Shown: piece by piece, positions 3,500-38,545 of the stretch
Position numbering within the stretch: position 1 is the first letter of the stretch
Layout: each line of letters begins with the position of its first letter
Origin: Tricharina praecox
Lineage: Eukaryota
DNA length: 64,000 bases
Direction: 5' to 3'
Assembly: GCF_024521635.1 (NCBI RefSeq)
Contig: NW_026250429.1
Location: forward strand, 1-64,000
The notes under the pieces: model-generated
Databases searched by the model: none
Told to the model about the DNA's origin: nothing
What the model saw: only the letters and a program-made list of their open reading frames with translations
Made by a program: the position numbers and the translations under genes

Positions 3500-5700
3500 T
3501 ATTGTCAACTCAGCTGAAGATCGGTGTGTTCGACGGACAAGTGTAACTGCAACGTAGGTAGGAGGGCATGCATTCCATTCGACGAACTACGGCCGACTGC
3601 CAAAGTACAGGGGAAAAATCATAAGGCGACTCATATGTATCACAAGAGAGAAAAATAAGTCCAGCCAGATTGAAAACGCGCGGGATTACTTCTATCCTGT
3701 CCCCCGAAAGGGATGAACGTAATGGGATTGAATTAACCACTCTAGTGCCTCCGGACTACGTAGAAAACAGGTGCCTCGATTCTCTGGTAGCGCCTTACGG
3801 GTGGTTGCTCAAAGAGCGAGTCACAGTACAAGCCTTAAGGCTCGAGGGCAGCGACGCGCCTCTGCAATTGAAGATCTCTCTCTCATAAGCCTCACCATCG
3901 CAGCTACGCCACTTCAATTCCGCGCACCCACAGGGTTTAGCCGCCCACCCTTCCTCTCTTTCCCTCTCCCTCCTTTATAATCCACCATCAACATCCTCTC
4001 TTTCCTTCCACTATGTCCCTACTCCACCCACAACATCCTCTTTCCACCTGCCGCTTCTTCCTACACTTCTACTCCACCATCCACTTGGCAAAGAAAGAAA
4101 CAAAAACGATTTTCTGCCACCCGCCTCAAACCCAGCCCAATCCAACAAGTCTCTTTCCTTCCCGACAGTGACCGCCCCAAATCCCCCAACGTGGGGAAAG
4201 GGAGGGGGGGTTAATCAGACTCCGATGAAGAGGACCCCGAGGACGACTCAGAGAAACTCTCTGAGTCGGCTCCGATGAAGAGGACTCTGAGGAGTAAGAG
4301 CTCTGGCTCGTTTATCCTCCCGGCGTAACCGTCACGACGGTTAGGCCATTCGTTCCTAGCGGAATGCTTTTCCGTTTCGTTTTGCGGCTCCATCGCCGCA
4401 TACGACAGATTGTCCTCCCCAGCTACATGGCTTCCGCAGGTAGGTCCCTGTCTATATAGGTACCTATTATCGATCTTCAAATAACTGATCTTATGTAGTC
4501 TTTCATCGTCCACCCGGCAGACACCCGCAACCCCAATAGTCACGCAAGACATCACCAGATCCGCTACCCAATCAGTCACACAAACGACCACCACGAGACA
4601 CACCCGCAACCAGGAACCGAAACCACAATCCACACCAAAGCCTCCGGAAGATCCTTTACCCATCTACATGGCTTCTCAAGGTAGATCTCTATCTACATCC
4701 TATCATCGAACTTCAGATCGCTAACTGTCCTCTCTAGATAACATGAAGCTGTCGGTCAACTGGCGCAAGCCGCTCCCACATCCGGCCTGCATTCAGATCT
4801 ATCCAGATCGGTTCGCAGGGCAAGTCTTCAAACCCATTCTCAAAATCTTTGGAGTGAAAAACTACGACCACATATGGTTCGATTTCCGCTTCGAGGTGCT
4901 GCGAATGTTCCGGCAACAATCGGAGGTGCTGGCCGGAATACGTGAGCTATGATGAAGACGTGGAGGAAGACATGGAGGAAGAGGAAGAGGAAGAGGTTTA
5001 GAACTGAAGGAGTTGTTATTGTTCTTGCTTTCGATTTTATCGTCGATAACTGCATCCTCAATTACTTCGTAACGTTTCCTGCTCGTCGTGAAACAATATT
5101 TATAGTATGCTCGTAGCCAGCCTGTGTTTTACATACTACAGTCCAGCGGTGTCTTGCACGACCCATGGTCCATTGGCGGAACTGCACTAAATTCGTCCAG
5201 TCCATATCGGAGGTTAGTCTTGCACGCACTACTACTGAGTTCATCAGACAGGTAGGACGGGATGGATCGCTGTTGACTGTAGCCGAGTGGCAGTAATCTA
5301 ATAAGTACATCCGAAACACCATAATGCCACATGAATCACATCGGAGAGCGCTTCGCACAGCACGGAAGAACAACGGTATTCCACCCTCCAGCAGGGATGA
5401 ACGAAGCGAGATCAGGAATGTCCCCTCGAAAATGTTCGGACAGTGTAGAACACAGGTTTCGTGGACGGTTGTTCCGTGGACTTCTTCACAGCGCGGCGCT
5501 CGTTTTTACATTTACAGCGGAAGAATCATAAGGCACCAGGAATCACATCATAGAGAGCTCAGTAGTCCCGCAAGATGGCGAACAAGACGGAATATGTACA
5601 ACACAGGTGCTGTGGACCGTGGTTCTCGAGCATGTCTTCACGGCAACTCACGAGTTGCACGAGTGACATCACATGGTATCACGGCTGCAGCTACAATTCT
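3500..5700 (+). repeat. Cassette unit U1 (conserved spacer - leader - intron-containing degenerate ORF - acidic tail - spacer)
   Basis: GCTACGCCACTTCAATTC at 3903 and ACTGCATCC tail motif at 5049. 3740-5150 aligns with 13165-14700. Spacer motifs AGGGATGAACG and GTAGAAnACAGG occur both upstream (about 3708-3770) and downstream (about 5393-5456). Confidence 0.8.
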
Positions 5701-5704
5701 CTAT

Positions 5705-6545
5705 GAAAATCGAAGGAAATGAGATCGCAGATGGGTGGGCCAAGCAAGCATCGGAGAACGTCGACGGCGATGGAGTAAGATGGCTCCGGTAAGGTAGCGG
5801 ATATGGACGCAGGCGTGCCGTTCCCCTTCCGGTCTCACTGGCACAACTTAAGAGGCGGATTAGCGATGAAAAGTGGAGAGAGGCGCATCAGTGGTCACTG
5901 ACCCGCATCAAAAACCAGCGGTACCGTACAAGAAGTGGATAAAGGAGGGATGATGATCATTACTGGTGCTGCAACAGGTCTACCAAGCAATCACGCGACC
6001 ACCTATTCAAAACCGCTCGCGGTTGAGAAGTCAACAGAAAGTCTTGTGGGTAAAGGTCGGGAAGGAGACGGAGAGATGGAAAGAGAGGTGGTCGATAGCG
6101 GAGCTGTTCGCCGACGAGCGCAGCAGCGAGGCAATCGTACAGTTTCTAGGAACGTCGGATGTGGGGAGGAAAGCTCCACCAGACCTGAAGGATGAGGATG
6201 AGGAGGAGGGAAGCATCCCATCGGGGGCAGAGCAAGAGTGCCCAGGAGGGTGCTGTGTCTGCGGCCGGTGCGAGGAAGTAGGAGATGAGGATACGCGGTG
6301 ATATCGTCTTGGAGCGGAAAGGCGGAAGACGGCGGAGAGAAGCAAGGGGGCAGCAGGAGGAGCGGGCATGTAGGCCCATCCCGGTCTTTACTGTTAATCT
6401 ACTTTCCACTTTTTGCTTATGTCGGGCCGAGGCGGATGGGCAGGGAAGATGAGGCGCCGCGTCGGACTGGCCAGGGCTGGCAGGAAACGGAGGTCGTTGG
6501 TTCGCCATAATCTAGATAGGTTGCATGCGAAATAAACATCAGGAA
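5705..6545 (+). mobile_element. 5'-truncated non-LTR retrotransposon (LINE, RNase H-containing), 3'-UTR type A
   Basis: IEGNEIADGWAKQA (end of RNase H), decayed zinc knuckle WCCNRSTKQSRDHLFK, C-terminus QQKVLWVKVGKETERWKERWSIAELFADERSSEAIVQFLGTSDVGR. The 3' end TCTAGATAGGTTGCATGCGAAATAAA is shared with other copies. Confidence 0.85.
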
Positions 6546-7559
6546 AAAAAATCGCTATGAACGTAGCCGGCTGCGTGTATAAAACGTGCGGCACTCGGCG
6601 CAGCGAGTGAGTTGGGAGCATGTGAACTGACCCACTCCACCATATTCCCTGGGAACGACGTCAGCTAGGGTGGGGTGTTCGAAAGTTCGTTGGAATGCTG
6701 TTGGGCGAAACATCATTCCCAGAAATCAGTGTGAGTTTCGTGTTATTCATCGCTTGAATGTGGTCTATCTGGAGAATTGCAGTATCGACAGCCCGTTCGC
6801 TCCCACAACTCTTGCTCAGCCTCGCCCTTGACTAACCGTTCCCTCAATTCTTCCGGAGTCTTTCATTACGTCAACTCTTCGCCGCCGTCAACTCTTCGCC
6901 GGCTTCACCACTTCCGCGCCATTCCCTTTGGCTGACACGCTCCCTCGAATTTTCTTTGGCATCATCTCATCGGCGCTGTCAACTGCTCCCTGCCGTCAGA
7001 GCCTCCGTGCCGTCAAATCCTGGAAGCCGTCAAATTCTCTGTGCCGTCAAATCGTCTCTGCCGTCGGCGAGTCGGCGTGCTCTGGTATGCCAGGTGAGAG
7101 ACAAATACGGGTCTCTCCAAACTTGGATAGTTGGCTTTTAATCTTTGGATCGTGCCATGCTGACACTACCTAGCACAATGAATACCCCGCTTTTCGCACC
7201 CCAAATGTTTTCTCTCTCTACTACTGTTCACTCTGCCCGTCCCGACTGAATACTCCCTCCTGGCCCTACACCGCGGAGTGTTCATTGCCGGCTCCTTCTC
7301 CTCGCCATCCTGGCGCTCCGCTTTTTACTCATCGTGCTGGTTTTCCTGGTCCTGCTGATATTGTCTTCTCACTAGGAACTACTATTCGCCAACCGTCATC
7401 TCCTCCTGCTCCTCGTTGTGCGCTTCACCATCTCCTAACCCTCCTCGTTCTACTCGCTATGTGCCTTGTGTCCGTCCTCCCACCGAAAGACTCTGATGGC
7501 GAGACTCCTCGCCCATTCCACCCTGTGACGGAAGCAGTCTCCCCGTCCTTCTAGTGGTA

Positions 7560-7730
7560 CTGCTCGTCCTGCTCGTCCTGCTCGTCCTGCTCGTCCTGCT
7601 CGTCCTGCTCGTCCTGCTCGTCCTGCTCGTCCTGCTCGTCCTGCTCGTCCTGCTCGTCCTGCTCGTCCTGCTCGTCCTGCTCGTCCTGCTCGTCCTGCTC
7701 GTCCTGCTCGTCCTGCTCGTCCTGCTCGTC
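7560..7730. repeat. Perfect 9-bp tandem array (CTGCTCGTC)x19
   Basis: Read directly: 171 bp with no mismatches. It explains the LLV/RAG/RTS repeat ORFs. Confidence 0.97.
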
Positions 7731-8874
7731 CTACCGCCGAATGAGCATCCTTGCCTAGCTCCGCACTCAATTAATCGCTCCGCTCCTCGCCCAACTCCTC
7801 CCCAGCTCCTCGCGCAGCTCCGGTTTCGCTGCCAGGGACTCACCACAGGGTTCGCCTTGGAGATGCTTCTTTCGCTGCCATGGAAGCAGAACTGGATTCG
7901 TCCAAGAAGTGCCCTCTCGCTGCGTTGGACTGGATTCGCCTAAGTGTTTTCCTCACACTGCCATGGATGCACTACTGGATTCGCTGCCAGGGCTTTGTAC
8001 TAGATTGGTTGCTAGGGCCTCTTTACTGGATTCACTGCCATGGCCTGTGTACTGGTTTCGCTGCCATAGACTCAGTACTGGCCGCCTCAAGCTGCAACGG
8101 AGACAGCACTTGACATATTTTTCCCCAAAGCTCTGTTTGTCTCCGGCGAGCCTAGATAGCATGTGTACATAGAGGACCTACTGCTGCAGCAAGAAAGAGA
8201 ATAATGAAGTCTTTTCATCGTCATACTCTACAATTCTGAACAGCGCTTTACCCGCCTAAGAAATGCCCCTCTCGCTACTGGCGAGCGGGGCCGGGAATGA
8301 ACATATCGGTAAAGACGAGGAGTAGGAAGTGGAAGTGGAAGAGCTGGACGACAAGGAACATGAGGAACATGAGGTCTAGAATCAATTGGAAGACGACGGT
8401 GACTATGCGTGGCGAATTTTGTGGGGTTCTTTAGGTTTATCAGCCCTCGCCACAGCACTTGCCACAGCACTAGCGACAGCACTAGCCATCAGTCTGACCT
8501 CACCCTCACGCTCGCACGCCTCTGGGGAAAATGATGATATATAATACCAGTGGCAGCGCAACCTTGATTGCTTTCTCTAACTTCCAACATCAGTCATCCC
8601 CACACCTGGTACTCCCCCAATCGACACATCGAACTATACCCACGCATCGATCATGCCGGCTCCCAACGGACTGCCAATCCGTAGGCAGCGCAGAAGATTG
8701 AGACGGCCGCCCCAAGAAACAGATACGACCACCACCTCGCCATCTTTCCCCGCCAGCTATCTCGGCCGTCCTGGCGGGCAACAGACCGTGTCCGCCTATC
8801 AACGAGGAAAATCGCAAGAAGATCCTCAAAGGAACGAACGCTACTGACACTGCTGCTCACCCTCCTTTCCAGTG

Positions 8875-10155: not shown

Positions 10156-13100
10156 ACAGGAGTACTCCCCGCTTGATACTGCATATACTCGCGAGGTTGC
10201 GGGATCCCGCGGCCTCATCCGTTAATCGGTGTGCGTGGAGACGCAGCATGTGCGGGTGATATTGAGTAATCAGTGTCGTTGAAATCTGCAGATAATCGGA
10301 CCATTCCGCACAAAGAAGAGCAGTAGGCCGTAATGCCGCCGTTGTGTGCTGTCGACAGTGAGAGTCTCGGAGATTCTGGAGGACACATAGAAATGATATC
10401 GGTGCTCTCCGCTCATACGCCGAACTCGATCATCATGGTGAACACTGCCGGAATGGAGACACGACGCGCGGCCTCAAGGATCTATTTCATCGCGTGGGGA
10501 ATGACCTAACCATCTATACATAGATCCTCGGGAGCCTGAAGTATAATCGTGCGACTGCAGGACGCGAGTGACGCGTTGTGCTGCTCGCGAACTGTAGCAT
10601 GAAGATATGCGGACAAGTCCGCACGATTAAAGGACTACCAGCGGAAGTGGATATTATATATACTGGCGGAGTTTAGAGAGCCTTGAGAATACCGCTGAAA
10701 TGTTGAGTGAACGTGGGTACTCACGGTGTAATATTTCGGGGAACAGATATGTACGGAAAGAAGCGATTGACAATCTGACTACTTAAATAACGGTACGTAG
10801 CAGCACGAATGGAGGACAACTCGTGGCGAGAATCACGAAATTATCCGCCATTTCAATCGTAAAAGCCTATCAAGATAGCACGTAACAGAGACACGACACA
10901 ACTATTTCACCCTCCTTTTCCGTTTTCCCATTTGCTGTTCCCTGAGCACGCCGGCTCCCTACAAACAACTGAAAGTCACCTCGGCGAGCATCAAACTTTT
11001 CACCCTTATCTCCTCATTTTCAATTGCCATTGACGAGCACGCCGGCTCCCTACAAAAAACTGAAAGTATCCTTGGCCAGTTTGACGAGACCAACTCCTTA
11101 CAAGAAACTGTAAGTATCCTTGGCCAGTGTGACGAGACCATCAAAGACACGGACGATGGCACGAGAGACACGAACGATGGCACGACCACATCTGGTGATC
11201 CAGTTGCCGATCAGAATGATGGTTTCGTTCTCCCTTCCGAACCCGCTGGGAGATTCACCCAGCTGGGCGTAGCCTTCCTCCGCCCTTCGAGCCGCCTCTT
11301 GTGAACTCTGTCAGCATGATCATCAATCAGTATTCGGCGGAGGAGCGGTGGACATACCCCAGTGGCCGATACCCACGCTGGGATGGTTGACGAATTCCCG
11401 AAGGTCCATCCTGGGTAGGTCAGAATAACGTTCAGGTGCGGCTGGGTTCGCAAGGTTAATGGGACAGGGAGCTTACAGAAGACCACCCACGGAGGACGCC
11501 AAGGACGAGCTGTCCGAGTCATCCAGATTGATCGTGGGCATTGTGTTCTTGGGTGTAGATGTCGAAGTGTAGAATATCTTGTTGGGTGGTACTAGATGAC
11601 GAAGACAGAAAAATGCGGGTAATTTGTGTCGTTGTTGTTCAGCCGACTTGAAGGGGATGATGGTGCGGGAGATGGAGGGGGATGATGGTGGTGGGGGACG
11701 ATGGTAATGGGGTTTGATGGTGGTGGGGGATGGTGGTTAGGAAGAGAGAGGGGGGGTGATCGTGGTGGGGGGTGCGTTAAACGTTTGAGTGGTTCTTTTG
11801 GGTGGTACTTTTGAGTGGCGGTTCTGCGTGGTACTTTTGTCTGGCGTGTGTCTATTTCGACGAGGAACATGATACTAGCTTGACTTCGGTGATTAAATTC
11901 TCTGCTTTGGGAGATATATGTCGATTAAGCACGTCGAGGGACAACCAAATAGGATACTATACCTAAGCTTCATGCACAGCAGAATCCCCGCGTGCTACAT
12001 GTTTCCTGAGTCCTGTAGTGGCCACTGTTCGGGAAAGGCAGCGATTCGTGAATGTTCCTGGAAACAGCATGCGAGACGCAAGATATGTTAGAGAGCAGGA
12101 CCAGGGATTGATCCCCAATTTTCGAAGGCAAAGTACAAGTTTCTTTCTCAGGCGAACCTTGAAGTCTGATCTCTCCAGAACGAGAATCCCCCTTTCCCTC
12201 CGATGCTGCTCGTCTATGCTTGTGTTGGGCGCAGAAACGGCGGAAGACCCATCGGTGCAGAGTCACGTACGATATCCCATTTATGCACCCTGGACAGTTC
12301 ACGAATGTTTCTAGAACTCGTGCAGATACCTGATTCCACACCCTGAACGAAACACACCCATCGATTCTCCCTCGCGAATCCCGGCCGGAAACGCGCTCCC
12401 GACCGATGGTTACAATATGGCCAGAACCTGGTCTCGGCAGCCATGCAGCACCTCAGAGACTACTCCGGCTACTGATCCCTCGTCGTCGCTAATCGTCAGT
12501 CCGTATTTTACAGTATTGCCGCACACATGGCCAAATAATCACCGGTGTGGGTTTCCCCAACGCGCCGTCCAACCCAAGGACAACCAACACCGCTATATTC
12601 GACAACCCTTACTACAACACAGTCGCATCCTCGTCTTGCCAAGACGCTACACGCGTGCCGTGTTCCTATTCGCTGAATCCAACATCGCGCACAACAATTT
12701 CCGCTTCATTTCTACCCCTCTCGAAATGTCGCAGCGCACCTGTTCGCAATGAAAACCCATATAACAACCACCACAGTACTCTCCTCACTTCAGCAGCATA
12801 TTGCACCTATTTGCGGTGGAGGACGACCTCGACGATGCCGATATTGCAGCGGCTACCACCCAAAAATTGGGGGGCAAACGAGCCACACAGGTGGTGAAGA
12901 GAAGAAGGAGGAGATAGATAAGGATTACGAAGAGAACGAAGCCTCCTCTCAAGCTCACTCTTCCACCGAAGACTCGAAGGAAGATTCGGAAGAGGAAGCC
13001 TCCTCCGAAGAACCCGCCTCCGAGGATGACTCGAAGGACGACGAGAACGGCGACTAGAACGAAGACGACAAAGATGCGTCAGTAGAAGAAGGCCCCTCCA

Positions 13101-14311
13101 AGGAAGAATTGGAGAAGGACGAAGGCGTCTCGTACGATGACAACAAACCCGAAGAATCAACTGCTCTAATCCCTCCTGATTACGTAGAACACAGGTGCCT
13201 CCATTCTCGGGCAGCAGCTTACAGGTAGTTGCTCACAGAGCGAGTCACAACGCAAGCCTCAGCAATTGAAGATCTCCCTCTCACAATCCTCAGTAACATG
13301 GCTACGCCAATCCAATTCCGCGCAACGCGTAGGGTTTCACGCGCACGGTTTCGCCGCCCCTATTCCTCTCTTTCCCCCTCTTTCCTTTATAACCCACTAT
13401 TAACATCCTCTCTTTCCCTCCACTCTCCTCTCAATCCACCACCAACATCCTCTTCCCATCTTCCGATTCTTCCTACACTTCTACTCCACCATCCACTTCG
13501 TCTCTTTCCCTCCCGAACGGGACCGCCCCAAATCTCCCCACGTGGGAGGTGAGCGGCGGGGAGATTAATCAGACTCCGATGAAGAGGACTCAGAGAACGA
13601 CTCAGAGAAACTCTCTGAGTCGGCTGCAATGAAGATTACTGTCAGGAGTAAGAGCTCCTGCTCGTTGAACCCGCCGGCCTAACCGTTGCGACGGTTAGGC
13701 CATTCCTTCCTGGCGGAATCTTTTCCGTTTCGTTTTGCGGCTCCATCGCCACATGCGACAGATCGCGCCCCCCAACGATATGGTTTCTGCAGGTAGGTCC
13801 CTATCTATCTATCTATTATCTAACTTCAAATAACAGTTTGTTCAAGACGCCGGAATCGAAGCATAGTAGCCCAAATGGGGCCATCTATCATCCACACTGA
13901 TCACCAAACAACCACCCGAACTGTTCTTCAGACAACCACTACGGCAGGCACCCGCAACCACGATCCGTAACCACGATCCACACTAAAGCCTCCGGAAGAT
14001 CCTTTACGCTTCGATATGGCTTCTCAAGGTAGATCTCTATCTACTTACCTATCATCCAACTTCAAATAACTAATTGCCCTTTCTAGATACCATGAAGCTG
14101 TCGCTGAACAGGCGCAAGCCGCGCCCACATCCGGCCGGCATCCCGATCTATCCAGATAGGACGAGGAGGCCAGTCTTCGCACTGATTCTCCAAATCTTTG
14201 GAGTGAAAAATTACGACCAGATCTGGTTTGATTTCCGCTTCGAGGTGCTGCGAATGTTCCGGCAACAACCGGAGGTGCTGGCCGGAATACGAGGGCTACG
14301 ATGAAGACGTG

Positions 14312-14512
14312 AAGATGAACAGACTGCATCTGCACGTGACCGACTCGCAGTTGTGGCCCCTCGAGATCCCGTCTATGCCGGAGCTCGCCGAGAAGGGTGC
14401 TTACGCCCCCGGATTCACGTACTCGCCCGAGGATCTGCAGCAGATTCTGGACTACGCCGAGGCGAGAGGTATCCAGGTCATCGTCGAGATCGATATGCCT
14501 GGACACAGCACG
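14312..14512 (+). pseudogene. Captured fragment of a GH20 beta-N-acetylhexosaminidase gene
   Basis: KMNRLHLHVTDSQLWPLEIPSMPELAEKGAYAPGFTYSPEDLQQILDYAEARGIQVIVEIDMPGHS contains the GH20 catalytic-domain motifs KxNxxHxHxxDxQ and RGIxVIxEIDMPGH. It is absent from paralog U1. Confidence 0.93.
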
Positions 14513-14775
14513 TGTTGCAGGAAGACGTGGGGAATGAAGGAGAGGGTTAGAGCTGAAGGAGTTGTTATTGTTTTTGCTTTCAATTTCATCGCGGATAACT
14601 GCATCCCCAATGACTGCGTAACCTTTCGTGCTTATCGTGACAAAATATTTATAGTAGAGTCGTAGCCGGCCAGTATTTTACATAGTACAGTGCAGCCTAC
14701 TCTTTCCCCACCCATGAACGGGATTGTACTTCAGTCACCCAGTTCGCCCGGCTTGAGGTTCCGGCAACGGCGGCG

Positions 14776-15002
14776 TGTCAGGAAAAGTGGTATCGCGAGA
14801 TGGTATATTGAGTATCAGACACGAAAAAAAGAAAGGTATATATTCGGGAAGGCTCGGGGATGCCCCGGATAGAGGCGCCACGCCGCCGCTCGGCACCTCC
14901 GTGTGAGAACGGATAACGGAAGTATCTCGATATAGCGAGTGATCGTTCATGACCCGGTCCTCGGAAGTGACGCGGTACACGGAAGTTCGTGAGATTATGA
15001 CA
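14776..15002. mobile_element. Solo LTR, family A (227 bp)
   Basis: TGTCA...TGACA ends and perfect 5-bp TSD CGGCG. Homologous to 55378-55581, and in inverted orientation to 31373-32556 and 41995-42341. Confidence 0.93.
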
Positions 15003-15419
15003 CGGCGCGATTGGGATCACCGAGTGATCGACTGTGGAGCGCCGGCAGCGTCGGCGGCGGCAGATATCGGGGTTCATGGACTCGATACCAAGAGCCTAGT
15101 CGCTATCGAAGTTCTCAGTGTCTGTATACCGCACTGTCTTTCACATAGCCATCTATCAATATATTCACATTCGTATTAATAGTCCGCAGCAGTGTGCTGC
15201 TAAATCTGGGCTACCGGTAAGGTTGAAAGAAACGGAGAGCGGTCGGGTGTAGTCGATTGACAATAGTGGTACAAGCATAGCGGAAAAACAATAAGGCGAC
15301 ATGAATCACATCAGAAACAGGTCCGTCAAGATCAATGACGCCCAGACGTAGTAGAATTATCCACCCCACAACAGATAAAGGCAGGACTGGACTAATCTAT
15401 AAATACTGCCCAGAATGGA

Positions 15420-16040
15420 AGAGTCAGCACAGAACTCTGTAGACACTGGTTCGGAACGCGACAGGGCGGGGCAAGGACCGATTCAAAAGGCGTGCCCTCT
15501 TTGCAGACGAGTAACGAGTAGTGCAGCCAGGCCATCCTAGACTTCCTTTCCTGCCCTGATGTGGGCAGACGGATCCCCGTGGTCATTGATGAAGATGCAC
15601 CGAGTTGGAGCTTCATGAGCGGGAGGACATAGCGGAGCTGAGGCAACTCGACGAGGAGCAGTGTGCTGAGTTGAAGAACCCGGCGATGTAGAAGAGCGGA
15701 CCACTGTAGAGAAGTGCGGCGGAGGAGGGACGATTTGAGTCCGCCAGTGCGGGTCCGGGGGGGGGGGGGAGGCGGATGAGCGGATAGCGTGGGGTGAGTG
15801 GAGGAGACGGACGGAACGAGAGAACGTACGTTGCCTCTTCCTAGCTTTGCCTATTTAGTGAACTCCCATACTGTCGGGAAAGGCCAGGACGGAGGGCAGG
15901 GATAGCCACGCCGGGACGTTCGACGAACGTCGAGTTGAATAGTGCCATGGAAGCGGAGGATGTATAACCGGGGCGGTTATTGCCTTGATGTACATACTCC
16001 GCATGCAATTAATGATGAAACAAAAAAACAAGAAAAGGAC
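15420..16040 (+). mobile_element. 5'-truncated LINE, 3'-UTR type B
   Basis: Decayed LVRNATGRGKDRFKRRALFADE..CSQAILDFLSCPDVGRRIP; A-rich tail GCATGCAATTAATGATGAAACAAAAAAACAAGAAAA. Confidence 0.8.
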
Positions 16041-17852
16041 GGGCCTTATTAAAAATGCTACAGCGATTCAATCTAAAGCACCCCATAGGTTTCACTGGTA
16101 TGGTGTCGCTTTATTTGTTCCTTTCCCTCCCTCCCCTTTCTTCCTACACTCGACCTTCTTCTCCTTCTCTCCCCCTTCTTCCTACTCCATCAGCAACCTC
16201 ATTTCTATCCTTCATCATCCTTACCACAATGCTACTTCAGCATCAACTTCCTTTCTAATTCCCCCCCCCTTCCACTTACTCCTACCTACTGAACCGGCTC
16301 CGGGAAATGGCCATGCGCAATCCCGTTCACCGGGAGTGCCTGGTGGCAACGATTGGAGGAAGGGAGTCGTGCACAGAATTCCCCCTGACCCAATTCCCGT
16401 TCTTCTCTCCCCCTCAACACTCGTACGATATCCTCCCACCGCTCAACAAGCCGAAACGACGAACGATCCGCACCTACCATCATAAATCACACATCAACAG
16501 CAGGTATTGCCGCCGCTACCATCGCCGGCCTCATGATCCAGCTACCAACCTGGGCTTCCAGGGCTACAGGGACCGCGCGCGGGCCGTTTGATTATTCGGT
16601 TCCGAATTCGTGTCGCGGTGGAACCGCACGATCGGAAACGGCAAATTAAAGATTTATCGGCCTCAGCATTCGGATAAACATTTTGAGGTGATGTCGCCGG
16701 CCGTTGAATAATAAGTTTTCCATTTATTGATATCAACTTTTCTTTAAGTTTTAAAGTTGTAGCTGTGGCAGTGTTGTGTCCGGACGCGAGGATGATTTCT
16801 ACGACGAAGGTGATGACCAGTGGTATTGTGCCTATCTCTTGGACTTGTATGAGGTTTCAGGCAGCCAGCTGATCATGGGATAACACTCATCATGCGCCTG
16901 GACCACGACAACAGAGAAGGACCAATGGCACTGGAAGGTCCGTATACTTCGAAGCATACACCCTCCCGCCGATTTGGCGAGAGAATTTGTACGAAGCAAA
17001 GTTATGACCTCTACGACCGCCCAAAACTGGAAGTGCACAAGAGCCACTGCCGTGGCAACAGAAGAAAGGGTTGGACTGCCCAGGGTCCTGGTGGGCTTCT
17101 GGCACAAGTCGCGTCCCGCTAGTGTGACGAGGTGGAGGAAGATAAGATGGAAGATGAGGATGCGTCCTCCTCCGAACAATCCTCCGGGGAGCACTCGAAC
17201 GGAAAGGGCGTCGAAGAAGAAGACCCGCCAGGCGACTGCTCGAACCAACTAGCAGCCAATCCACCCACGGCTGCTCAGGATTGCTCGGACGAAGATGATG
17301 CCGAAGTAGAAGACTCGTCAGACGACTGTTCGATCGAAGAAAACTCGCACGAACGTGACTCAGCCGCCGTCGAAGAAGTCAAAGCCGAACGATACCCCCC
17401 GCCAGGAGCCATCTACGGGTACCACGAAGACCCGAACTAGGAAGACGAGGAGGATGATGATGATGATGAGGAGGAGGCGGAGGAGGCGGAGGAGGATTAG
17501 CGCTGAGGGATCTATTTTTGTTTTGTTTTGAATTTTATTTTTATCACAGACAACTGCATCCTAAATGACGTTGTATCCCTTCGAGCTCGGCGCGACGCAA
17601 TATTTATAGTAGTCTCTAAGCCCGCCAGTATTCTAAATCGTGAAGTCCAGCCCAGTCTTTCCCCATTCATCGAAGGGACTCAGCTATATTCCTTCAGTGC
17701 ATTGTTGCAAATCTCGGGCGGAGCGATGGAACGACGGAACTTCAGTGGTTGTCACTCGACTCGTGCAGAATATTGTTGGTAATACGCGTGCGTATTGGGA
17801 ATCCTGTTTATTCTCATCCTTGCTTCTTCTGCTTCTGCTTCTGTCTGTTATG

Positions 17853-19390
17853 TACAGCGGTCGAAAGTGGACAAATAGCCAAACATATGTATTGTGCATT
17901 TGACATTTTGCTTTTGACGTTTTGCTACGCGCCTTCTTGCAACCCGCCGTTTTGCAACATAGCGCTGGTCGACTCACCCCACAACACAACAGAGCGCCCA
18001 CCGAGACAAAAAGAGAGAGATAAAGAGAGAGAAACAGGGAAGGCATAAGGGAGAGAAACAGAGGGCGGAAAAGAGGGCAGAAAAAGATGGCGAAAAATGC
18101 GAGAGGACGGTAGGTGACAGCGAGGAGAGGAGTTTGGTGGGGTATAGATGAGTTAGGGTTTAGATGTCGCAGTAGGCCCCACGCGATAAAACAGTCATCA
18201 CCACTACTATACCATCACTATCACTGCTAGATTTCTCCCTGCGGATAAATAGGTAGACCGGAATATGGTTATTGAGATATGGCGATCCCCTCCTCACAAG
18301 GGTGTCCCTCGCAACGAAAATGCAGACGAATGGCCGAAGCTGGCCGCAGAGGCTCCAGCAGCCGATAATCTGGCAGCGGGTGGGAAAACAGAGGGCTCGG
18401 GGAAAGGATCGCTTCAGGATCCCCGACCTCTTTGTTGATAACCGCCGCAGCGGCTCAATTCTGGAGTTCGTAGCAGCAACAGATGCAGGGACGGGAGGCG
18501 GCGGGGCGGATTAGGAACTCCTGGCGGCGAAGAGGTGAGTCTACAGAGCGGACGAGTTCTTGGAGTGTGCACCGAGCCGACGGAGCGACTGTAATGAGCG
18601 AGCGAGCCAGTTGAAGGAGCGGGCAGCAAGTCGATAGGGTGGGCGTTGTCTCCTCCTGGTGATCCGGCTAACCCCTCGCATTATGACTGGGATCGGGATC
18701 ATGGTATATCACTCGGTATATCAATGTGACGATATCACTACTCCTGGGCTCCTTCCGGCTGAGATGAGGCTTAAAACAATACCCCTTAAAGAAGCACTCG
18801 AGGTCAACACGGGTTGAAACATATCCAGCGATTTGTGAAACGAAAAACCAGTCTTCACCAGTTATTAAGGAAACTAAGATGTTTAAACCTAAAAAGCGCA
18901 AATCCAACACCAATGTGATGCACATCGTCCAAACTTGGTATGCAATAACTTCCACTCTCTGTCTGCAGTTTTACCTTGAGTTTGTTGCTCTGGCGAGGAA
19001 AATTTCTAGACAAAGAGCCTCGGCGGCATGGTGGCGGAGGTAGCGGTGGAGGCAGTGGTGGTTATGGTGTGGTGATAGCACTGTTTTTTGTTTATCACCT
19101 GGGGCCTAGTTTCTGTGATCTAAACCCTAACCCATCTCCACTCCTCCTCGCTGTCACCTACCGTTCTCTCGCAATTTTTGCTCTCTTTTTCTCTCCCTTA
19201 TGCTTTCTGTTTCCTCTCTCTTTTACTCTCTCTTTTTCTATCTCTTTTTCTCTCGGTGGGTGCTCTGTTTTGGTGCGCGGTGAGGCCACCAGCGCTGTGT
19301 TGCAACCCGGTGAGTTGCAAGACGGGGCGTAGCAAAATGTCAAATGCACAATACACATACTTGGCTATTTATCCACTTTCGACCGCCGTA
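17853..19390. mobile_element. Non-autonomous DNA transposon with about 385-bp terminal inverted repeats
   Basis: Left end TACAGCGGTCGAAAGTGGACAAATAGCCAA, right end TTGGCTATTTATCCACTTTCGACCGCCGTA. Arms about 17853-18238 and 18997-19390; flanked by GTTATG/GTTATT. No transposase recognised. Confidence 0.9.
18290..18660 (+). mobile_element. LINE C-terminal fragment inside the TIR element
   Basis: QQPIIWQRVGKQRARGKDRFRIPDLFVDNRRSGSILEFVAATDAG matches the LINE C-terminus seen elsewhere in the window. Confidence 0.75.
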
Positions 19391-19814
19391 GTTATTTCTA
19401 GCTGGTCGTCAGCTGTGTTTTACGAATAAACCAAGCGATCGAACACACACTCAAATTTCTCAACATCCATCCTGAGGTGTGTGTTGCGCGGACTGCTCAG
19501 GCCATGGGTAATGTCGGGAAGGACAGACTGCAGGCGATCGCAGTCGAATGCCAACAAAGGTGCAATTACAGAAGAAAACCCATAGGATAACATGAATCTC
19601 ATAACAAAGGCTCAGTCCTGGTCCAAAGATTGCGATCAGGGCGGACTACTTTTATCATGTCCTTGACATGGACTGGAAGGTCGGGCACAGCAAGATCTCC
19701 TCCCATCAGTGCGGACTCTTGTGTATAACACAGCTACCCTGGACGTTGGTTCTCGCAGAGCGCTTCAATGGCCGTCGGTCGACTGTAAAGTGACGTCACA
19801 TCTTTTCAGCGGAG

Positions 19815-21345: not shown

Positions 21346-21349
21346 CAGG

Positions 21350-22570
21350 GATGAGCCTCAGTGACAATGCTACAGCAATTCAATGCAAAGCACCGCGTTG
21401 AATTCTGTAGCGCGGTGTCGCCTTACCCATTCCTGTTCCTTCCTCCCTCTTCTTGCTACACCGGCACTCCTCTCCCTCCCTCTCACTTCTTCCTACTCCA
21501 ACACCAACCTCATCTCCCTCCTTCATCATCCATACTAGAATGCTACTTCAGCATCAACCTCCTTTCTATTTCTTCCCCTTCAACTTACTCCTACCTACCG
21601 ACCGAACCGACTTCGAGAAATAGCCATGCGCAGCCCGGACTACCGGGAGTGCATGGTAACGAGTGGATGAAGGTTATCGTGGGACGTCTCCCTCACCGAA
21701 TCGCCGTTCCTCTTACGCGATCAATAATCATACGATATCCTCCCCACGCTCCACAAGCCGGAACAACGAACGATCCGCACCTGCCTCCACAAATCAAACA
21801 TCAACAGAAGGTATGGTTGCCGTTATCATCTCCGGCCTCAATATCCAGATACTTACCTGGGCTTCTAGGGCTACACCCGCCACCGATTAGTCGATCGAGG
21901 ATAACCGCAACCTCACGGCTGCTCGGACGAAGATCGCAGTGAAGAAGAACACTGTTCCGACGATTACTCGGAGCAAGAGGAGGCGGATCAGCATACGGCT
22001 GCTCGGACGAAGATGACGCCAAGGAGGCACAGTTGATTAACGAGGCACAGTTGATCAAGGAAGCACAGTTGATCGAGGAAGCACTGTTGCTCAAGGAAGC
22101 ATTGCAGTTCAAGCGAAAGAATTTGGAAGCCGATCAGCTCACAGCTACTCGAACGAAGATGGAGGTGAAGAAGAAGACTCTTCCGACTATTGCTGGGAAC
22201 AGTACGACGCCAAGGAAGCACTGTTTCTCAAAGAGGCACAGTTGTTCCACGAGGCACTGTTGTTCAAGGATGCGCAGTTGTTTAAGGAGGCCTTACTGCT
22301 CAAGGAACCGTTTCTGTTGAAGGGAGAGAATCCGGAAGCCAATCAGCTCACGGGTGCTCGGACGAAGATGGCGGCGAAGAAGGAGATTCTCCAGTGCCCG
22401 GACGAACATCACTCGTACGAAGAAGACTCGTATGACGAACACTCCGACTAGGAAGACGAGGAGGAAGATGAGGAGGAGGGGGAGGATGAGAAGGATTAGT
22501 GCTGAGGAAGCTGTTTTTTGTTTTGTTTTGTTTTGAATCTGATTTCTATCGCAGATAACTGCATCCTACT
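21350..22570 (+). repeat. Cassette unit U5 (cargo is 18-bp minisatellite blocks)
   Basis: GCTACAGCAATTCAATGC at 21369; same intron ending TTCTAG|GGCTAC; (GAAGCACAGTTGATCAAG)-like repeats at about 22020-22110 and 22212-22320; ACTGCATCC at 22558. Confidence 0.85.
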
Positions 22571-23044
22571 CACACACCTACTCTCCAGACCTCTCCGATA
22601 AACCGAAAGAGACAAGGACGGTGCCGCCTGATAGCCATGGAAAGTTTCACCTTCGACAGTATGGCGGATTCATTACCGGCTACCTTGGTCTGGTTACGTA
22701 GAGCCACCTTCCAATCACGCCCGCGCTTCTCTTGAAGTCAGTTAAACCGGTACCCGTGGAACGGATTTTCTCCAGCGACAAAAACCCTGTTGTTGTGCTT
22801 CTTTTCCATGATTTTCCCGTCCATACTGTGTGTGTCAAATATATGGTAGATAAACATGATGATAGTATTGAATGCAGCGACAATATCATGAGTAGCTCTC
22901 TCTCTATATATACAACCTTCATAACCAGGAAGTCTCTGCTTCGATCCCTTCGGAGTTCCGTGCTCCGATACCCAGTTAGAGTACGCTAAGGCCATCGTCA
23001 TCCTCGGACTTCCCATATTCTGACAGCGTGAATCCATGGTCTCT

Positions 23045-23440
23045 GGCTTTTTTTTTCTGTTTAATCATTGATTGCATGCGACCTAACTAGATCATAGCAA
23101 TATAACCCCGTTCACCCCCCGGTTTCCACGCCACTGTCCAAACCTAACTTTCGTCAGGCGGCCCGATGTGGCTTCCCCTGCCCTCCGCCCTGGCCTTTCC
23201 CGAAAGTTGGCCTCTCCGCCGTTCGCAGTCGCCCCCACGCCCTCGAGTCATCTCACCTCCATTGCAACTTTCCAGACCGCTATTCTGCGTCGCTGGACTC
23301 CTCAGCTTCAGTACCCTCCTCCCAATCAGCTTCAGCACCCTCCTCCTCCTCCTCGAGTCGCGTCAGCTCCACTCTCTCTTGGTCTCCAACCTGCCCCGGC
23401 GGAGCATGGTGTACATCGCGGTCCGGCCGGGTGAGCATCG
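23045..23440 (-). mobile_element. LINE type B 3' end
   Basis: Reverse complement of the GCATGCAATCAATGA..AAACA tail; aligns with 25592-25900; QERVELTRLEEEEEG. Confidence 0.75.
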
Positions 23441-28430: not shown

Positions 28431-30600
28431 ATGGGAACGTATCGATTCGGTATGTGACATTCCCCCTCTCGATTCGCGCTTGAGTTCCGCATTTATTCGG
28501 TCGTGTGTGATCGCTGACATGTCCTCGTCACAGAGAACGCGACTTCCAGCCGCGCCAAATGCAAGGCGACCACGTGCGGCCATGACAAGATCCTCAAGGA
28601 TGAGCTCCGCCAGGGCACCTTCGTCACGATTCGCGGTGTCGAAAAGGGCACCTGGGCCTGGAGGCACTGGTCGGTTGCCCTCTTTCCTACTCGATTCGTT
28701 GTGGCGCGACTAACTCGATGCTTGCGTGTAGGGGCTGTGTTACGGCGAAGCAGATGTCCAACATCAAGGCGTCGTTGATGGACGGCGACAACATCAACTG
28801 GGACCTCTGCGACGGACTCGAGGAACTTACGGAGGATGACAAGGTGAAAGTTCGCGAAGCGATTCAGCGTGGATGGGTTGCCGATGACGATTGGCGCGGT
28901 GTATGTACTCTCTTCATCAGTTGTTGCCACGAATTGGACTAATAATATTGATAGGTCCTGGCCGGAAACCGCCCTGATTTCCCTAAAGCCCCACGCAGCA
29001 AGAAAGGATCCAAGGCGGATGGAGACGAAGATGATGGCAATGACGCGGCCATCGCATCCAAGGCTTCGGCTTCGGGTTCCAAACCTGATACCAAGGGTCG
29101 CGGAAAAGCCAACAAGAATGAAGAACCAGACGTCACGGATGACGCGGATGCCGGTTTCGACTCTAAGGCGAAATCACCTACTTCTTCTGACGCTATCAAG
29201 AAGGTGGAGTCTGACGATGACGCGGTCGTTGAGGAGAAATCCGGAAAGACCAAGTTAGTTGCATTCCCCGGTTTTTTTTTCTTCTTTCGTTGAATCGTAC
29301 TAACACGCTACAGAGAACCTGTGAAGAAGTCTCGCACTTCTTTGTCAAAGTCCAAGAAGAATGAGGTTGCCGCGGACACCCCCGAGGACGAAGCCGAGGA
29401 GGTTGCACCTAAGCGTGGTCGCCCCAAGAAGTCGGCCGACTCTAAAGCGGAGAAGGCGGTCCCCAAGGAATCGGCTCGCTCGTCCGGCCGTGCCAAGAAC
29501 GTCAAGTCATACAAGGAAGTGAACGAAGAATCGGCGGAGTCAGCCGAGGAACCTCCCAAGAAGGTTGTTGCCAAGCGCGGACGTGCCCCCAAGAGCAAAG
29601 AAGTGAAGTCTGCTGGCGACAAAGACGACTCTAAAGCTGACAATGCTCACGAGAAACCTGATTCGTCGGAGAGCAAGACCGGCGAAGTTGACGAGGTCAA
29701 GAAGCCGGCCAAACGTGGTCGGAAGGCCAAGGAGGTTAAAGCCCCCGAAGTCGAGAAGGATCAAGACGTCGAGACCAACACCGACCCCGAGAAAGCTCCC
29801 GCCAAACGTGGCCGCAAGGCAAAAGCAACCACGGATGACAACAAAATCGAAAAGACGGCCGACGTGGAGGAGCCGAAGAAGGTTCCGGCGAAGCGCGGCC
29901 GCAAGCCGAAGGAAGTCGTCGCCAAGGACTCTTCTGCCGATGCCGAGTCTGAGGACCCCACCAAGACTGAAGTTTCGAAAGAGGAAACCGAGATCGCCGA
30001 GACCTCTCAACCGAAGAAGGCGCCGGCCAAGCGCGTCCGCAAACCGAAGGAAGTTGTCGCCAAGGACTCTTCGGCCGATGCGGAACCCGAGGCGAACCCC
30101 AAGGCTTCTGCTAAGAGTCCTAAGGCGAAGGCAGTTGGCACCAAGAGTTCGGACTCCGACTCAGTCGACCAAGTCGAGCAAGATGTCAAGGTTCCTGCTA
30201 AGCGCGGCCGCAAGCCCGCTGTCAAGGCTGACGCCGGTTCCACCAAGGAGTCATCCACCGTCCCTAACAAGGCTTCCGCCAAGCGTGAGGCGAAGGCGAA
30301 TGCTCCCAAGCACTCCGAAGCTACCGTTACCAAAGAAGTGAACTCAACTAAGGTTGCGGATCCCGAGCACATGGATGTTGACTCCGACGTCAACTCCGAC
30401 GTCACCAAGAAACCTTCCGTCAAGAAGGTCCAGAAGCGCAAAGCGACGGAGGATCATGACGACTCCGCGGAGGATCCCAAGAAAAAGTAATTTTTCCTTT
30501 CTTTACCACACGCAGAGAATTTAGGCTGACATTCCCCGGCAGAGCTGTTGCACCTCCCAAGAAGCGTGGCCGTCCTGCAAAAAAAGCTGCCGAAGAGTAG
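28431..30600 (+). CDS. PARP-type zinc-finger protein with long Lys/Glu-rich AT-hook tail (Hpz1-like); 6 exons
   Basis: Spliced MGTYRFENATSSRAKCKATTC...KILKDELRQGTFVTI...WAWRHWGCVTAKQ...DGLEELTEDDKVKVREAIQRG is a zf-PARP (C-x4-C...H-W-x-C). Canonical introns at 28450-28533 and about 28670-28731, 28901-28954, 29254-29313, 30487-30542; repeated KRGRP/KRGRK motifs; stop TAG at 30600. Confidence 0.9.
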
Positions 30601-32423: not shown

Positions 32424-33485
32424 GCTCTCACGGAGGTAGCGAGCGACGGCGAGCGGCCTCTATCTGAGGCATTCCCGCGCTTTCTTCTACATAAGCCTTT
32501 CTTCCTGCTGAGTCTGATACACTGTACATTACTTCAAAATACCACTTTTCTTGACAAAAATCCCGTGACACGATTCGAACCAGAAACCATGAATGGCTAA
32601 AATCTTGCTCTGCTCACATGACCTTGAAGAGGTGACCGATTAGACAGCGGTGTACGGCTATTACGTGATCGATTTAACAGTGATGTACGATAATGAGATA
32701 CTGTCGGGAATGCGAAATAGTTAGGGCATAGGCGGGGATGGTGGATCGGGGGGTGTGGGTGTGGACTTCCTCTGCTTTCGTTGTTTTGAATACATATATT
32801 GAAGAAACGGCGGGTTGGACCTGCAAACTGGGAACTGGTACTCGGGCGGAAGCTGTCTCTTGCTGATTGTAACATCACATGCATTAGGGAAAATCCCGTT
32901 ACCCAAACCGAACCAGAAATTATGAATGCCTAAAATTTTGCGCTGCCCGCATGACCACGATGAGGTGACCGATTAGACAGAGATGTACGTACGATTAATA
33001 ATCACTTTCGGGAACGCGAAATAATCGGCCGGCGATGGGGAGATTTGTACGATTTAGGAAGCTCTCGCAGCCCGTGCGCAGGTGGATATTGGAGGTGTTT
33101 GCACACGACCAAACAAATGGGATATCCACAGGGCCGGTATGAATAAGGTACATGGATATGTTTGCGAATCTCGTGGTGCGTTTGCAGTTCTTTTCGCGCG
33201 TTTGCTGAGCTACCTACCACATGCATTCTCACCAAGTTTGCTTCCGCAGGCTAGTCCTCACAAGTCATTCAATGCACGGCATCAACACACGTCACCTGTT
33301 CGCCGAGTCGGCTCAATTTTTAGGGTACTCTCGCGGTGGCCCTAGTTTGCCCTAGCCCGCCTACCCCCTGCCTACCTCCCGCCCCACTTATAAATTAGAA
33401 TATTTCTTCTTCCCACACCACAACTTCTCACAATACACTTTTCCATCTTTGGACTCCTTCATCATCTTACAACAACACTTTGGCA

Positions 33486-35905: not shown

Positions 35906-36009
35906 GTGAAGATCGACCTTCCCGCGAATGCTAATACGTGTCCGATCGCGCTGCATCACTCGCAAGCACCATCGATATCCAGATGAACTATCCCATTCCT
36001 TCCAGTGTC

Positions 36010-37059: not shown

Positions 37060-37180
37060 ATCGTGCTGGCTGGTAACGGGATCCCAACTCCCAGCCGACC
37101 AGAGTGGGCAGGAAAGGAGTGCGACGGTTCGCCATACTCTAGATAGGCTGCACGCGAAATAAAACAGGAAAACTCTCTCA
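37060..37180 (+). mobile_element. Short LINE type A 3' end
   Basis: GCGACGGTTCGCCATACTCTAGATAGGCTGCACGCGAAATAAAACAGGAAAACTCTCTC. Confidence 0.75.
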
Positions 37181-37199
37181 TCATGCTCACCGGATGGTG

Positions 37200-38545
37200 T
37201 TGCGTCTTCGTAAGCCTCCATGTTGTGAGGAGAGGTATTCATCGTGCTTTCACCGCGTGGTGAGTTGGTGGGTGCGGCCGGCTCTACGCCTTACGCACGG
37301 AGTTACAATAAGTCGGGAAAGACTGGGCAGGAATGTGCTATCTGGAGCACTGGCCCACTGGGTTGCTAACAGCATATTATAAAGATTGTGTCACGGCGAG
37401 CGCGAAAGGTTACAAAACCATTGAGGATGCAGTTACCTGCGATACAATTGAAAGAAACAAAGGCACAGGTCCGACCGTAACCTGATCACCCTCCTCCCCT
37501 TCCCGCCTATCCTCCTCCTCCTCTTCCTCTCGAGGATCCATCTCTCCCATCTCTTCCTCGCCACCTCTTGAACCGTGGACACGCTTACTGTGGGAATGAA
37601 CAGGACTGAATGGCTTCATTGGAAGAACCGGGATATCGTCCACGTCCAGGTGATCAAACTTCTCCTCGCGGGCAATGAGACGGCAACTATCGTAAAGCTG
37701 GTCGTCGTCGTGCTTGGTGCGGTTACTGCCGGGCTTCACACAATGTTGCAGGACGTAATCGCATATGTTGCAGTAGAACGTCGAGTACAACTCGGCAGCC
37801 GGCGAGTTGAAGATATCGTTTAGATCAACTTCAGTGCCGATGCACTTGAAGATTTTTTTCATTGTCGCCAAATCGAGCCGCGCGTAGAAGTATTGACAGA
37901 CTGCGGTGGGATATAGAGTCTCCAGAACCATTCTGTCCTTCTTCCAGACCTCGGTCACCTTTGTATCCGTCAGCAGCAGTAGTACCGGCGACCCAGAAGA
38001 GCGAACTCACATGCTTGACCGACACCTTCAGGACATCGCATCGCCATTGCCTTCCCCATAGCTGCTCGACACGCCTGATCGCGACATCATAGTGGCCCTT
38101 GGCACTGTGGTGCCTGTGGAGCTGGGCGTACACCTGACCGGCAGGTGCAGACGAGTAAACGCTTGCACTCCCCAGGCGCCTTGAGGGTGTCAATGGAGTG
38201 AAAAAATCAGGGATAAGGCACTGGAAGTACCAACCAGGTCCACAAGGTCAGAGCTTACCATCGGATGGATGGCGGAAGAGAAGCCGTGTGAACGGTCAAG
38301 TTGTGGTGGGTTATATCGTTTTTAGTTGCGTCGAGCGGTGGGAGGTTATCGTCTATTGACGTGGGGTAATTGAGAGAGAAAGGGTAAAAGCAGAAGTAGA
38401 TGATGGAGTAGGCAGAAAATAGAGGGAGAGAGAGGAAGGTGACGATGCTTTAGAAAGGACAGAGAGGGAGAGAGAGGAAGGGGGATCGGCGAAAACCTGC
38501 GGGGAACACCCTAAACAGTGCGTGAATTGAATTGCCGTAGCGTCG
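37200..38545 (-). repeat. Cassette unit U6 (inverted)
   Basis: The minus strand has GCTACGGCAATTCAATTC (ending at 38541), a pyrimidine-rich leader, an acidic tail and ACTGCATCCTCAAT (37420-37433), followed by spacer sequence. Confidence 0.8.
37410..38270 (-). CDS. Hypothetical spliced protein, cargo of U6
   Basis: Open frames 37831-38193 and 37410-37958 can be joined by a GTGAGT...GCTGAC...AAG intron (about 37959-38010); a further GTAAGC donor lies at about 38258. No family recognised. Confidence 0.4.

Follow-up and report, generated by a model that had tools for sequence, protein, structure and literature searches.

The first 64,000 nucleotides of contig NW_026250429.1 of Tricharina praecox (RefSeq assembly GCF_024521635.1), referred to below as the window, contain a family of six units (U1 to U6) and one orphan spacer, which we delineated by self-BLAST and by nhmmer profiles built from the units. 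Each unit runs from a 5' module through a variable interior to a 3' module, made up of an acidic tail, a T-rich stretch and the 9-mer ACTGCATCC, and then into a spacer. The interiors belong to three lineages, (U1,U2), (U3,U4,U5) and U6, with nothing common to them between the two modules, and three interiors contain copies of host-gene sequence. These data may be best explained, with a probability that we put at roughly 0.5, by an old lineage-specific gene family that expanded by local tandem duplication and whose interiors were rebuilt from host-gene pieces by repair-type insertion. The data show directly how the units are built, where the host fragments came from, in what order U2 changed, that U3 is spliced and that both ends group the copies alike, whereas the repair mechanism, a fragility of low-complexity tracts and selection on the motifs are inferred.

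The units and their conserved ends

The initial annotation had described at least six units plus a spacer with a common order of parts, and both methods bore this out, recovering six 5' modules, seven 3' modules (two of them in U4), the single orphan spacer and no further members elsewhere in the 64 kb; the head-to-tail arrangement of U3, U4 and U5 was also confirmed. The copies lie within 60 kb and their modules are 52-85% identical. Eight matches to ACTGCATCC are present in the window, compared with 0.67 expected. Seven of them, at 5049 (U1), 14598 (U2), 17553 (U3), 21035 and 21156 (U4), 22558 (U5) and 37425-37433 on the minus strand (U6), coincide exactly with the places given earlier, and the eighth, at 55011, is apparently unrelated to the family. 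The 9-mer forms an invariant nine-column run in all seven 3' modules, and a run that long arose in 11 of 10,000 column shuffles; the GCTAC run was not significant by the same test (3388/10,000). The degenerate 5' motif GCTACRSCRMTYCAAT, with 0 matches expected, was found six times, always within units and again exactly where it had been reported (3903, 13301, 16057, 19833 and 21369 for U1 to U5 and 38526-38541 on the minus strand for U6), and exact CAATTCAAT is present in only three of the six.

At the 5' end, all six units have only about 230-260 bp in common, namely the GCTAC..CAAT motif followed by a CT-rich tract; the 5' untranslated region (UTR) and intron 1 are found in common only in U3, U4 and U5. 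The 5' modules lie on the plus strand at 3863-4088 in U1 (nhmmer E = 4e-47; CT tract at 3944-4012), 13261-13508 in U2 (E = 1e-56), 16032-16568 in U3 (nhmmer match 16032-16293 and onward; CT tract at 16103-16216, 5' UTR and intron 1), 19806-20434 in U4 (nhmmer match 19806-20054 and onward, with intron 1) and 21340-21906 in U5 (nhmmer match 21340-21601 and onward), and on the minus strand at 38302-38560 in U6 (nhmmer). The CT tract of U4 is internally duplicated in tandem (118 bp). A 19-nt tandem repeat of about seven copies at 38538-38702 is an apparent expansion of the U6 5' edge sequence (GATGAGCCTCGACTGCAGC). The pyrimidine-rich tract had been taken for a leader. In the RNA-type runs X2 and X4, no contig covers the CT-rich tract of U3, making a promoter more likely than a leader, and the 5' module (GCTAC..CAAT plus CT box) is thus more likely a promoter, with the 5' UTR after it. 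In filamentous fungi, CT-rich tracts are found just upstream of start sites.

The shared 3' part consists of a purine-rich acidic tail, a stop codon, a T-rich stretch and ACTGCATCC, followed by a further 120-620 bp. On the plus strand, the 3' modules are located at 4951-5208 in U1 (nhmmer E = 8.5e-72, with a long spacer to about 5681), 14520-14745 in U2 (nhmmer), 17447-17708 in U3, 20928-21044 (U4a, truncated) and 21065-21306 (U4b, full) in U4, and 22446-22567 in U5 (truncated, ending 5 nt after ACTGCATCC); that of U6 is at 37306-37529 on the minus strand. The description of the tail as coding for Glu/Asp holds for U1 and U6, in which it is in frame with the upstream open reading frame (ORF), and fails for U3, U4a, U4b and U5, in which an in-frame TAG directly precedes it, so that the tail is untranslated (3' UTR) there. 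In every unit the interior is bracketed by the CT-rich tract and the GA-rich tail, and seven of the 16 tracts in the window with at least 85% purine or pyrimidine lie inside units.

The spacer of U1 (5061-5495) matches the orphan spacer at 63531-63953 (plus strand) with 78% identity by self-BLAST, and its distal part reaches about 5681. The orphan spacer begins 2-3 nt after the position of ACTGCATCC and adjoins the end of a foldback-type element. The spacer is part of the repeat period: the long spacer of U1 aligns with what precedes U4 (57-64% identity), and its distal part aligns weakly with what precedes U1 (61-68% identity, E about 1e-5). U1 had been said to have spacer sequence on both sides; the downstream one is clear and the upstream one weakly supported. 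The short spacer between U4 and U5 derives from the long type by deletion, and that of U2 is interrupted at 14776-15003 by a repeat resembling a miniature inverted-repeat transposable element (MITE).

The two ends of the units tell the same story. U1 and U2 are 83% identical in the 5' module and 77% in the 3' module; U3, U4 and U5 are 69-80% and 76-85% identical to one another, respectively; and U6 is 52-65% and 63-70% identical to the rest. The same grouping, (U1,U2), (U3,U4,U5) and U6, is therefore obtained from both modules, indicating that whole units, interiors included, were duplicated together and that the interiors changed afterwards. Agreement of the two modules and a spacer within the repeat period are what tandem duplication predicts, and they speak against the portability of the frame that the initial annotation had proposed.

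A candidate seventh unit at 52.8-55.1 kb, suggested by a CT tract and the ACTGCATCC at 55011, was rejected since it has neither the GCTAC motif nor a profile match. About 1 kb upstream of that 9-mer, the translation of 53856-54038 is weakly similar (33-39% identity) to the repetitive N-terminal portion of P0013, a protein related to U6, and module homology is absent there. Just upstream of U2 lies an acidic, coding-like stretch (12863-13108) with 30% identity (E = 3e-4) to the acidic portion of P0030, which also belongs to the family, and this stretch may be what is left of another unit.

Host-gene fragments in the interiors

The clearest acquisition is seen in U2. The interiors of U1 (4089-4950, plus strand) and U2 (13509-14311, plus strand) are homologous, with about 80% identity in alignment, and U2 equals U1 plus 218 bp, namely 202 bp of a GH20 hexosaminidase coding sequence, 7 nt of filler and a second copy of the 9-bp GAAGACGTG. 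The insert, absent from U1, occupies 14312-14520 on the plus strand (the GH20 piece being 14312-14513), matches Pfam PF00728 with E = 4.5e-27 at profile positions 30-108 of 348, and is flanked by GAAGACGTG as a direct repeat at 14303-14311 and 14521-14529. In runs X2, X3 and X4 we found one contig each, of 2.0-3.4 kb, that matches U2 only at 14312-14513, with nine differences in 202 (95.5% identical), and continues on both sides as unrelated coding sequence. This contig is the parent gene of the U2 piece, and the parent is expressed. As the piece is 95.5% like its parent and U1 and U2 are only about 80% alike, the sequence comparison clearly indicates that it entered U2 after the U1/U2 duplication and was not lost from U1. 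No transposon ends were found at the junctions of the insert, which consist of bare gene sequence and the 7-nt filler between the 9-bp direct repeats.

The remainder of the U1/U2 interior includes two copies of a piece consisting of an ATG, a 13-nt exon and an intron-like GTAGG..CTAAC..TAG sequence, so that at least some capture took place at the DNA or pre-mRNA level; the introns in the window look fungal (GTAGGT..CTAAC..YAG). In U1, an acidic piece ending in TAA is accompanied by an ORF starting MKLSVNW (4743-4949), and in U2 the ORF starting MKLSLNRRK (14092-14277) is exon 1 of the gene model P0031 ('glycoside hydrolase superfamily [Tricharina praecox]'), which is the conceptual product of U2, its exons being identical.

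In U4, a RING-LON fragment at 20459-20740 on the plus strand (Pfam PF02190, E = 1e-8) corresponds to residues 322-416 of a 506-aa RING and LON-domain protein. Its closest relative is P0005 ('PUA-like domain-containing protein [Tricharina praecox]'), with 81% identity, and the fragment is in frame with the downstream acidic region within a 161-aa ORF at 20438-20923. U6 (37306-38560, minus strand; interior 37530-38301) encodes the greater part of a conserved fungal domain, helical and about 110 aa long, that continues in frame into the acidic tail; the tail stands where members of the domain's family have their usual C-terminus. The domain has 19 relatives at E <= 1e-3, 14 of them at E <= 1e-10, and tblastn of the window with these relatives matched only U6. 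It matched no Pfam or NCBIfam family and no PDB sequence; Foldseek gave no fold at E <= 1e-3, the best VIA-align Z score was 5.2 and the Atlas search gave nothing at 0.9 or above.

The gene model on record for U6 is P0012. A second protein, P0013 (696 aa), is 79% identical to U6 in its C-terminal part and carries a translated 5' module (54% identity over residues 377-451), and thus appears from its sequence to be another U6-type copy elsewhere. The presence of both parts in one protein supports whole-unit duplication with later change of the interior.

The interiors of the middle lineage are related in part. The U3-specific interior (16569-17097, plus strand), which contains intron 2, includes two pieces, 16640-16770 (131 bp) and 16767-16823 (57 bp), that are 95-97% identical in other contigs. 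It is followed by an acidic region of repeated Cys-Ser-Asp-Glu-Asp (CSDED) motifs at 17098-17446 on the plus strand, shared with U4 (20755-20904, plus strand); no relatives of the U3 acidic ORF were found among proteins of 57-184 aa. The interior of U5 (21907-22445, plus strand) consists solely of three decayed copies of an acidic CSDED/KEAQL unit, which is also found in U3 and U4. The middles had been called mutually unrelated apart from U1/U2; this is true across the three lineages and not within one of them, since about 150 bp of U3 recurs in U4 with 84% identity and the repeated CSDED motif is present in all three units. Pfam searches of 79 interior ORFs of at least 40 aa gave no match at E <= 0.01 or above curated cut-offs, leaving the shared U1/U2 interior and those of U3 and U5 without an identified donor.

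The donors identified, GH20 (U2), RING-LON (U4) and the conserved fungal helical domain (U6), are all in sense orientation (3/3), and the fusions in U4 and U6 are in frame. At least three interiors are therefore host-gene copies, one of which (GH20) post-dates the U1/U2 duplication; both repeated acquisition of interior sequence, as the initial annotation had claimed, and replacement of interiors rather than their divergence are supported.

These observations bear on another reading, in which the units are ordinary decaying segmental duplicates whose interiors differ by random indels and whose flanks look conserved only because they define membership. The region is gene-poor and has gene fragments outside the units too (IIGP, HSP70-like and a frame-broken zf-PARP), many ORFs are broken (U5, U3), and the ratio of nonsynonymous to synonymous substitution rates (dN/dS) of the U1/U2 ORF, 0.55 over 69 codons, points to weak constraint. 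Against this, host-gene fragments are about 10 times denser in the interiors (three in about 4.6 kb) than outside (three or four in about 52 kb), all three identified fragments are in sense orientation and two are in frame, the flanks lack large indels while nothing between them is common to the three lineages, the 9-mer is invariant and U3 is expressed. We consider random decay of this kind unlikely.

Transcription and splicing

U3 is transcribed and spliced. A 998-nt contig of run X4 aligns without a single difference to 16379-16500, 16559-16685 and 16747-17435, skipping 58 and 61 nt with GT..AG ends, and the second of these joints was also seen in run X2. Intron 1 thus lies at 16501-16558 and intron 2 at 16686-16746, both on the plus strand. 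The earlier description of spliced exons stands for U3, with its two introns, and does not for the apparent first exon (MAAVTIA...) of U4 and U5, which is in fact the conserved 58-nt intron 1. No contig of X2 or X4 covers U4, U5 or, beyond the contig of the GH20 parent, U2, which does not show that these units are silent. No cover was found from 17463 to about 20600 after U3 either, and contigs cannot prove a transcript end, but the ending of cover there argues against read-through into the next 5' module. A reading of the 3' module, spacer and next 5' module together as the long terminal repeat (LTR) of an LTR retrotransposon or LARD was set aside on this evidence, which is weak.

The sense orientation of all identified fragments would also be expected if a reverse transcriptase switched between a unit transcript and other mRNAs and the resulting complementary DNA then converted a genomic copy. 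In the GH20 and RING-LON pieces the coding sequence is uninterrupted and the breakpoints fall within exons, and the runs with spliced U3 RNA also contain the GH20 parent. However, introns have been retained (introns 1 and 2 of U3 and the intron-like pieces of the U1/U2 interior), no poly(A) tracts occur at unit or insert ends, and no reverse transcriptase was found by Pfam among the 372 window ORF translations scanned. Such an RNA route is, in our estimation, very improbable.

Tests for mobility and transposons of the region

Edge alignments and inverted-repeat scans revealed no terminal inverted repeats (TIRs), LTRs, Helitron ends or unit-level target-site duplications (TSDs) at any unit, the only complementarity at unit flanks being a low-complexity match of the CT tract with the GA tail. 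A 5' TC, a 3' CTRR and a GC-rich hairpin near the 3' end were not found at the unit edges. The lack of TIR, LTR, poly-A and Helitron ends noted in the initial annotation was thus upheld. Pfam detected no transposase, reverse transcriptase or RepHel in 372 window ORF translations, which comprised all stop-to-stop ORFs of at least 110 aa, most of the ORFs of 75-109 aa found outside the units (150 of 168) and, from the interiors, 79 that are shorter. These results lend no support to the suggestion of a portable frame belonging to a rolling-circle or new class of transposable element.

A non-autonomous gene-capturing transposon, Helitron-like or of an undescribed class, would have its ends at the GCCTCAGTAACA..GCTAC edge and in the ACTGCATCC region, and a head-to-tail array would arise by read-through or tandem insertion. 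Several features fit: conserved ends surround exchangeable sense-oriented host-gene fragments, the 9-mer is invariant, U4a and U5 stop 5 nt after it, the orphan spacer begins just beyond it, the homology of U3 and U6 ends at the same 5' edge, U4 has a tandem pair of 3' modules, and P0013 indicates a further copy elsewhere. The units nevertheless show none of the terminal signatures listed above, neither RepHel nor a transposase was found among the 372 translations scanned, homology continues through the spacer into the next unit, and the copies are old and clustered within 60 kb. In addition, in X1, a DNA run that covers the stretch with near-identical contigs, depth over the 5' modules is not above that of their neighbours at 90% likeness, although depth is not copy number. 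We therefore regard such a transposon as quite unlikely.

Ordinary transposons of the same region do show clear TIRs and duplications, whereas the units show neither. A non-autonomous TIR transposon of about 1.5 kb that is not a family member is nested in the U3-U4 spacer at 17853-19390, with arms of about 367 bp at 74% identity (self-BLAST); it lies inside another repeat, has a GTTAT duplication and has intact empty sites at about 32.35 and 35.84 kb. The foldback-type element adjoining the orphan spacer (60195-63527) has terminal inverted repeats of about 30 bp, and its subterminal tandem repeats of 118 bp form blocks in inverted orientation (60416-61012 and 62541-63440). The MITE-like short dispersed repeat of the U2 spacer recurs at 32425-32556, 42206-42341 and 55378-55561 and attracts many extra contigs of run X1. 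Just downstream of U5, 22728-23400 has very high contig depth in X2 and X4, and 23049-23207, at the start of this deep stretch, repeats in the opposite orientation the segment 15870-16031, which immediately precedes U3; inverted copies of this repeat thus bracket the U3-U5 array.

A metagenome scan with TCRYVGAYAACTGCATCC gave at least 120 loci; of those listed, none matched the window by BLASTN and only one matched the module profiles, by a borderline hit of 42 nt (E = 8e-4). These loci are chance matches.

A model for the origin of the family

Under the preferred reading, a unit consisting of a promoter, a transcribed region, an acidic tail with 3' UTR and a spacer of about 0.6 kb would have been duplicated locally in tandem, and the ancient array would later have been broken by transposon insertions and an inversion. 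The promoter-type module and the ACTGCATCC 3' module would have been kept while the interior was rebuilt at least five times by insertion of sense-oriented host-gene copies of 57 bp to several hundred bp. Since the U2 insert comprises nothing but gene sequence, a little filler and short direct repeats, repair-type templated insertion is suggested rather than transposition; it may have proceeded by template switching or by fill-in at breaks, in or beside the purine/pyrimidine low-complexity tracts. The outcome would be transcribed chimeric ORFs or pseudogenes. Purine/pyrimidine tracts are fragile, and their fragility could explain how interiors turn over while flanks persist. Selection on expression or motifs is the other candidate, given that one unit (U3) is expressed, that the 9-mer does not vary and that the fusions in U4 and U6 are in frame, and the two may act together.

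Several points weigh against tandem duplication with repair-type insertion. The evidence comes from one locus only, and the copy elsewhere indicated by P0013 may mean that dispersal occurred. Under neutral decay there is no obvious reason for the flanks to survive when the whole interior is replaced, so that some bias is needed, and the constant sense orientation together with the in-frame fusions could reflect strand-specific capture or selection. The 10-bp repeat CGAGGATAAC around the U4 insert is not a clean junction, since its right copy lies within sequence shared with U3. Finally, two independent breakpoints, one at the truncated ends of U4a and U5 and one where the orphan spacer begins, fall within 5 nt downstream of ACTGCATCC, and tandem duplication leaves them unexplained.

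These breakpoints, the doubled 3' module of U4 and the orientation that is always sense are odd enough that we retain, at low weight, a capture-prone or mobile reading. In its boldest form, the promoter and ACTGCATCC tail modules would constitute an 'expression frame' that actively traps sense pieces of host genes, a standing generator of expressed chimeric genes in Pezizomycetes; trapping could occur through a site-specific nick or break at or beside the 9-mer and the tracts, or through a mobile element with non-canonical ends. We regard this proposal as doubtful.

Other features of the window

The window has a G+C content of 49-57% throughout and is poor in recognisable genes, and Rfam and tRNA scans of it gave no matches. 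Outside the units, Pfam finds four items: an aldo/keto reductase (55871-56656, minus strand, E = 4.5e-34), a fragment of an IIGP-type GTPase, a weak HSP70-like piece and a zf-PARP finger (28518-28939) split over two frames at profile positions 1-47 and 47-87, the frame break of which is either an intron or the mark of a frameshifted pseudogene. The segments 40366-41609 and 44032-45252, offset by about 3.67 kb, are duplicates in direct orientation (88% identity over 320 bp, 73% over 600 bp). At 7560-7732, a perfect 9-nt tandem repeat (CTGCTCGTC) is present 19 times, one frame of which gives a spurious collagen-repeat Pfam match.

Comparison with known systems

Conserved promoter, UTR and terminator flanks around a hypervariable coding middle are known from conotoxins, snake-venom PLA2 and trypanosome MASP. 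In those families, however, the middle diverges by substitution, whereas here it is replaced by unrelated genes. An ordinary tandem gene family is resembled in the head-to-tail copies, in a spacer that belongs to the repeat and in the identical grouping from both ends, but homologous coding sequence does not extend across the members, as the three lineages share no interior. The units also differ from processed retrocopies in that introns are present, and spliced in U3, and that there is no poly(A) tail. Templated or filler-DNA repair insertions, such as arise by template switching or microhomology-mediated repair, are similar in their short bare copies, few filler bases and short direct repeats at the junction; those seen here differ in that they return to one slot of a gene family with many copies, that their orientation is always sense and that some are several hundred bp long.

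If the slot truly attracts host-gene pieces, the family would be a natural fungal case of repeated exon shuffling into a ready-made promoter and terminator, with datable events (the GH20 piece is about 4.5% from its parent and the units that carry it about 20% apart) and expressed products, and the birth of chimeric genes would be directly testable in an organism for which genome and RNA data are publicly available. If a tandem array has simply decayed, the family is still a warning for annotation, in that gene models built on fragments take the names of their donors. For example, P0031 is labelled as a member of the glycoside hydrolase superfamily yet covers only 79 of the 348 positions of the GH20 catalytic-domain profile. 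Literature searches on related phenomena yielded no such fungal promoter/terminator frame; as all but one were directed at subjects other than the repeats of T. praecox, we do not claim that it is absent from print.

Among mobile elements, an excerpt of PMC3538342 describes transduplication by TIR DNA transposons, namely hAT and Tc1/mariner elements of Pyrenophora tritici-repentis and plant Pack-MULEs, in which, as here, conserved ends surround host-gene fragments that can be fused into chimeric transcribed ORFs. Host-gene fragments between conserved ends, the mark of Pack-MULE, hAT and CACTA elements, were found in our units (GH20, RING-LON and the fungal domain). Unlike those transposons, the units have no TIRs, flanking duplications or transposase relative, their 9-bp direct repeats flank the captured fragment and not the unit, and the copies are old and local instead of near-identical and dispersed. 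Helitrons of maize capture genes, and so do those of Pleurotus and other fungi (PMC4289320). In Helitron capture, as here, several gene fragments of the same orientation lie between conserved 5' and 3' regions; chimeric transcripts are formed, and the elements can be arranged head to tail. The units differ in that their edges show neither TC..CTRR nor a 3' hairpin, that no RepHel was found among the window ORF translations scanned, and that the inter-unit spacer is homologous too. The family thus resembles transduplication and Helitron capture functionally and fails the defining structural tests of both: the formation of chimeric genes by capture of fragments is known, and here it has taken place without a recognisable transposon.

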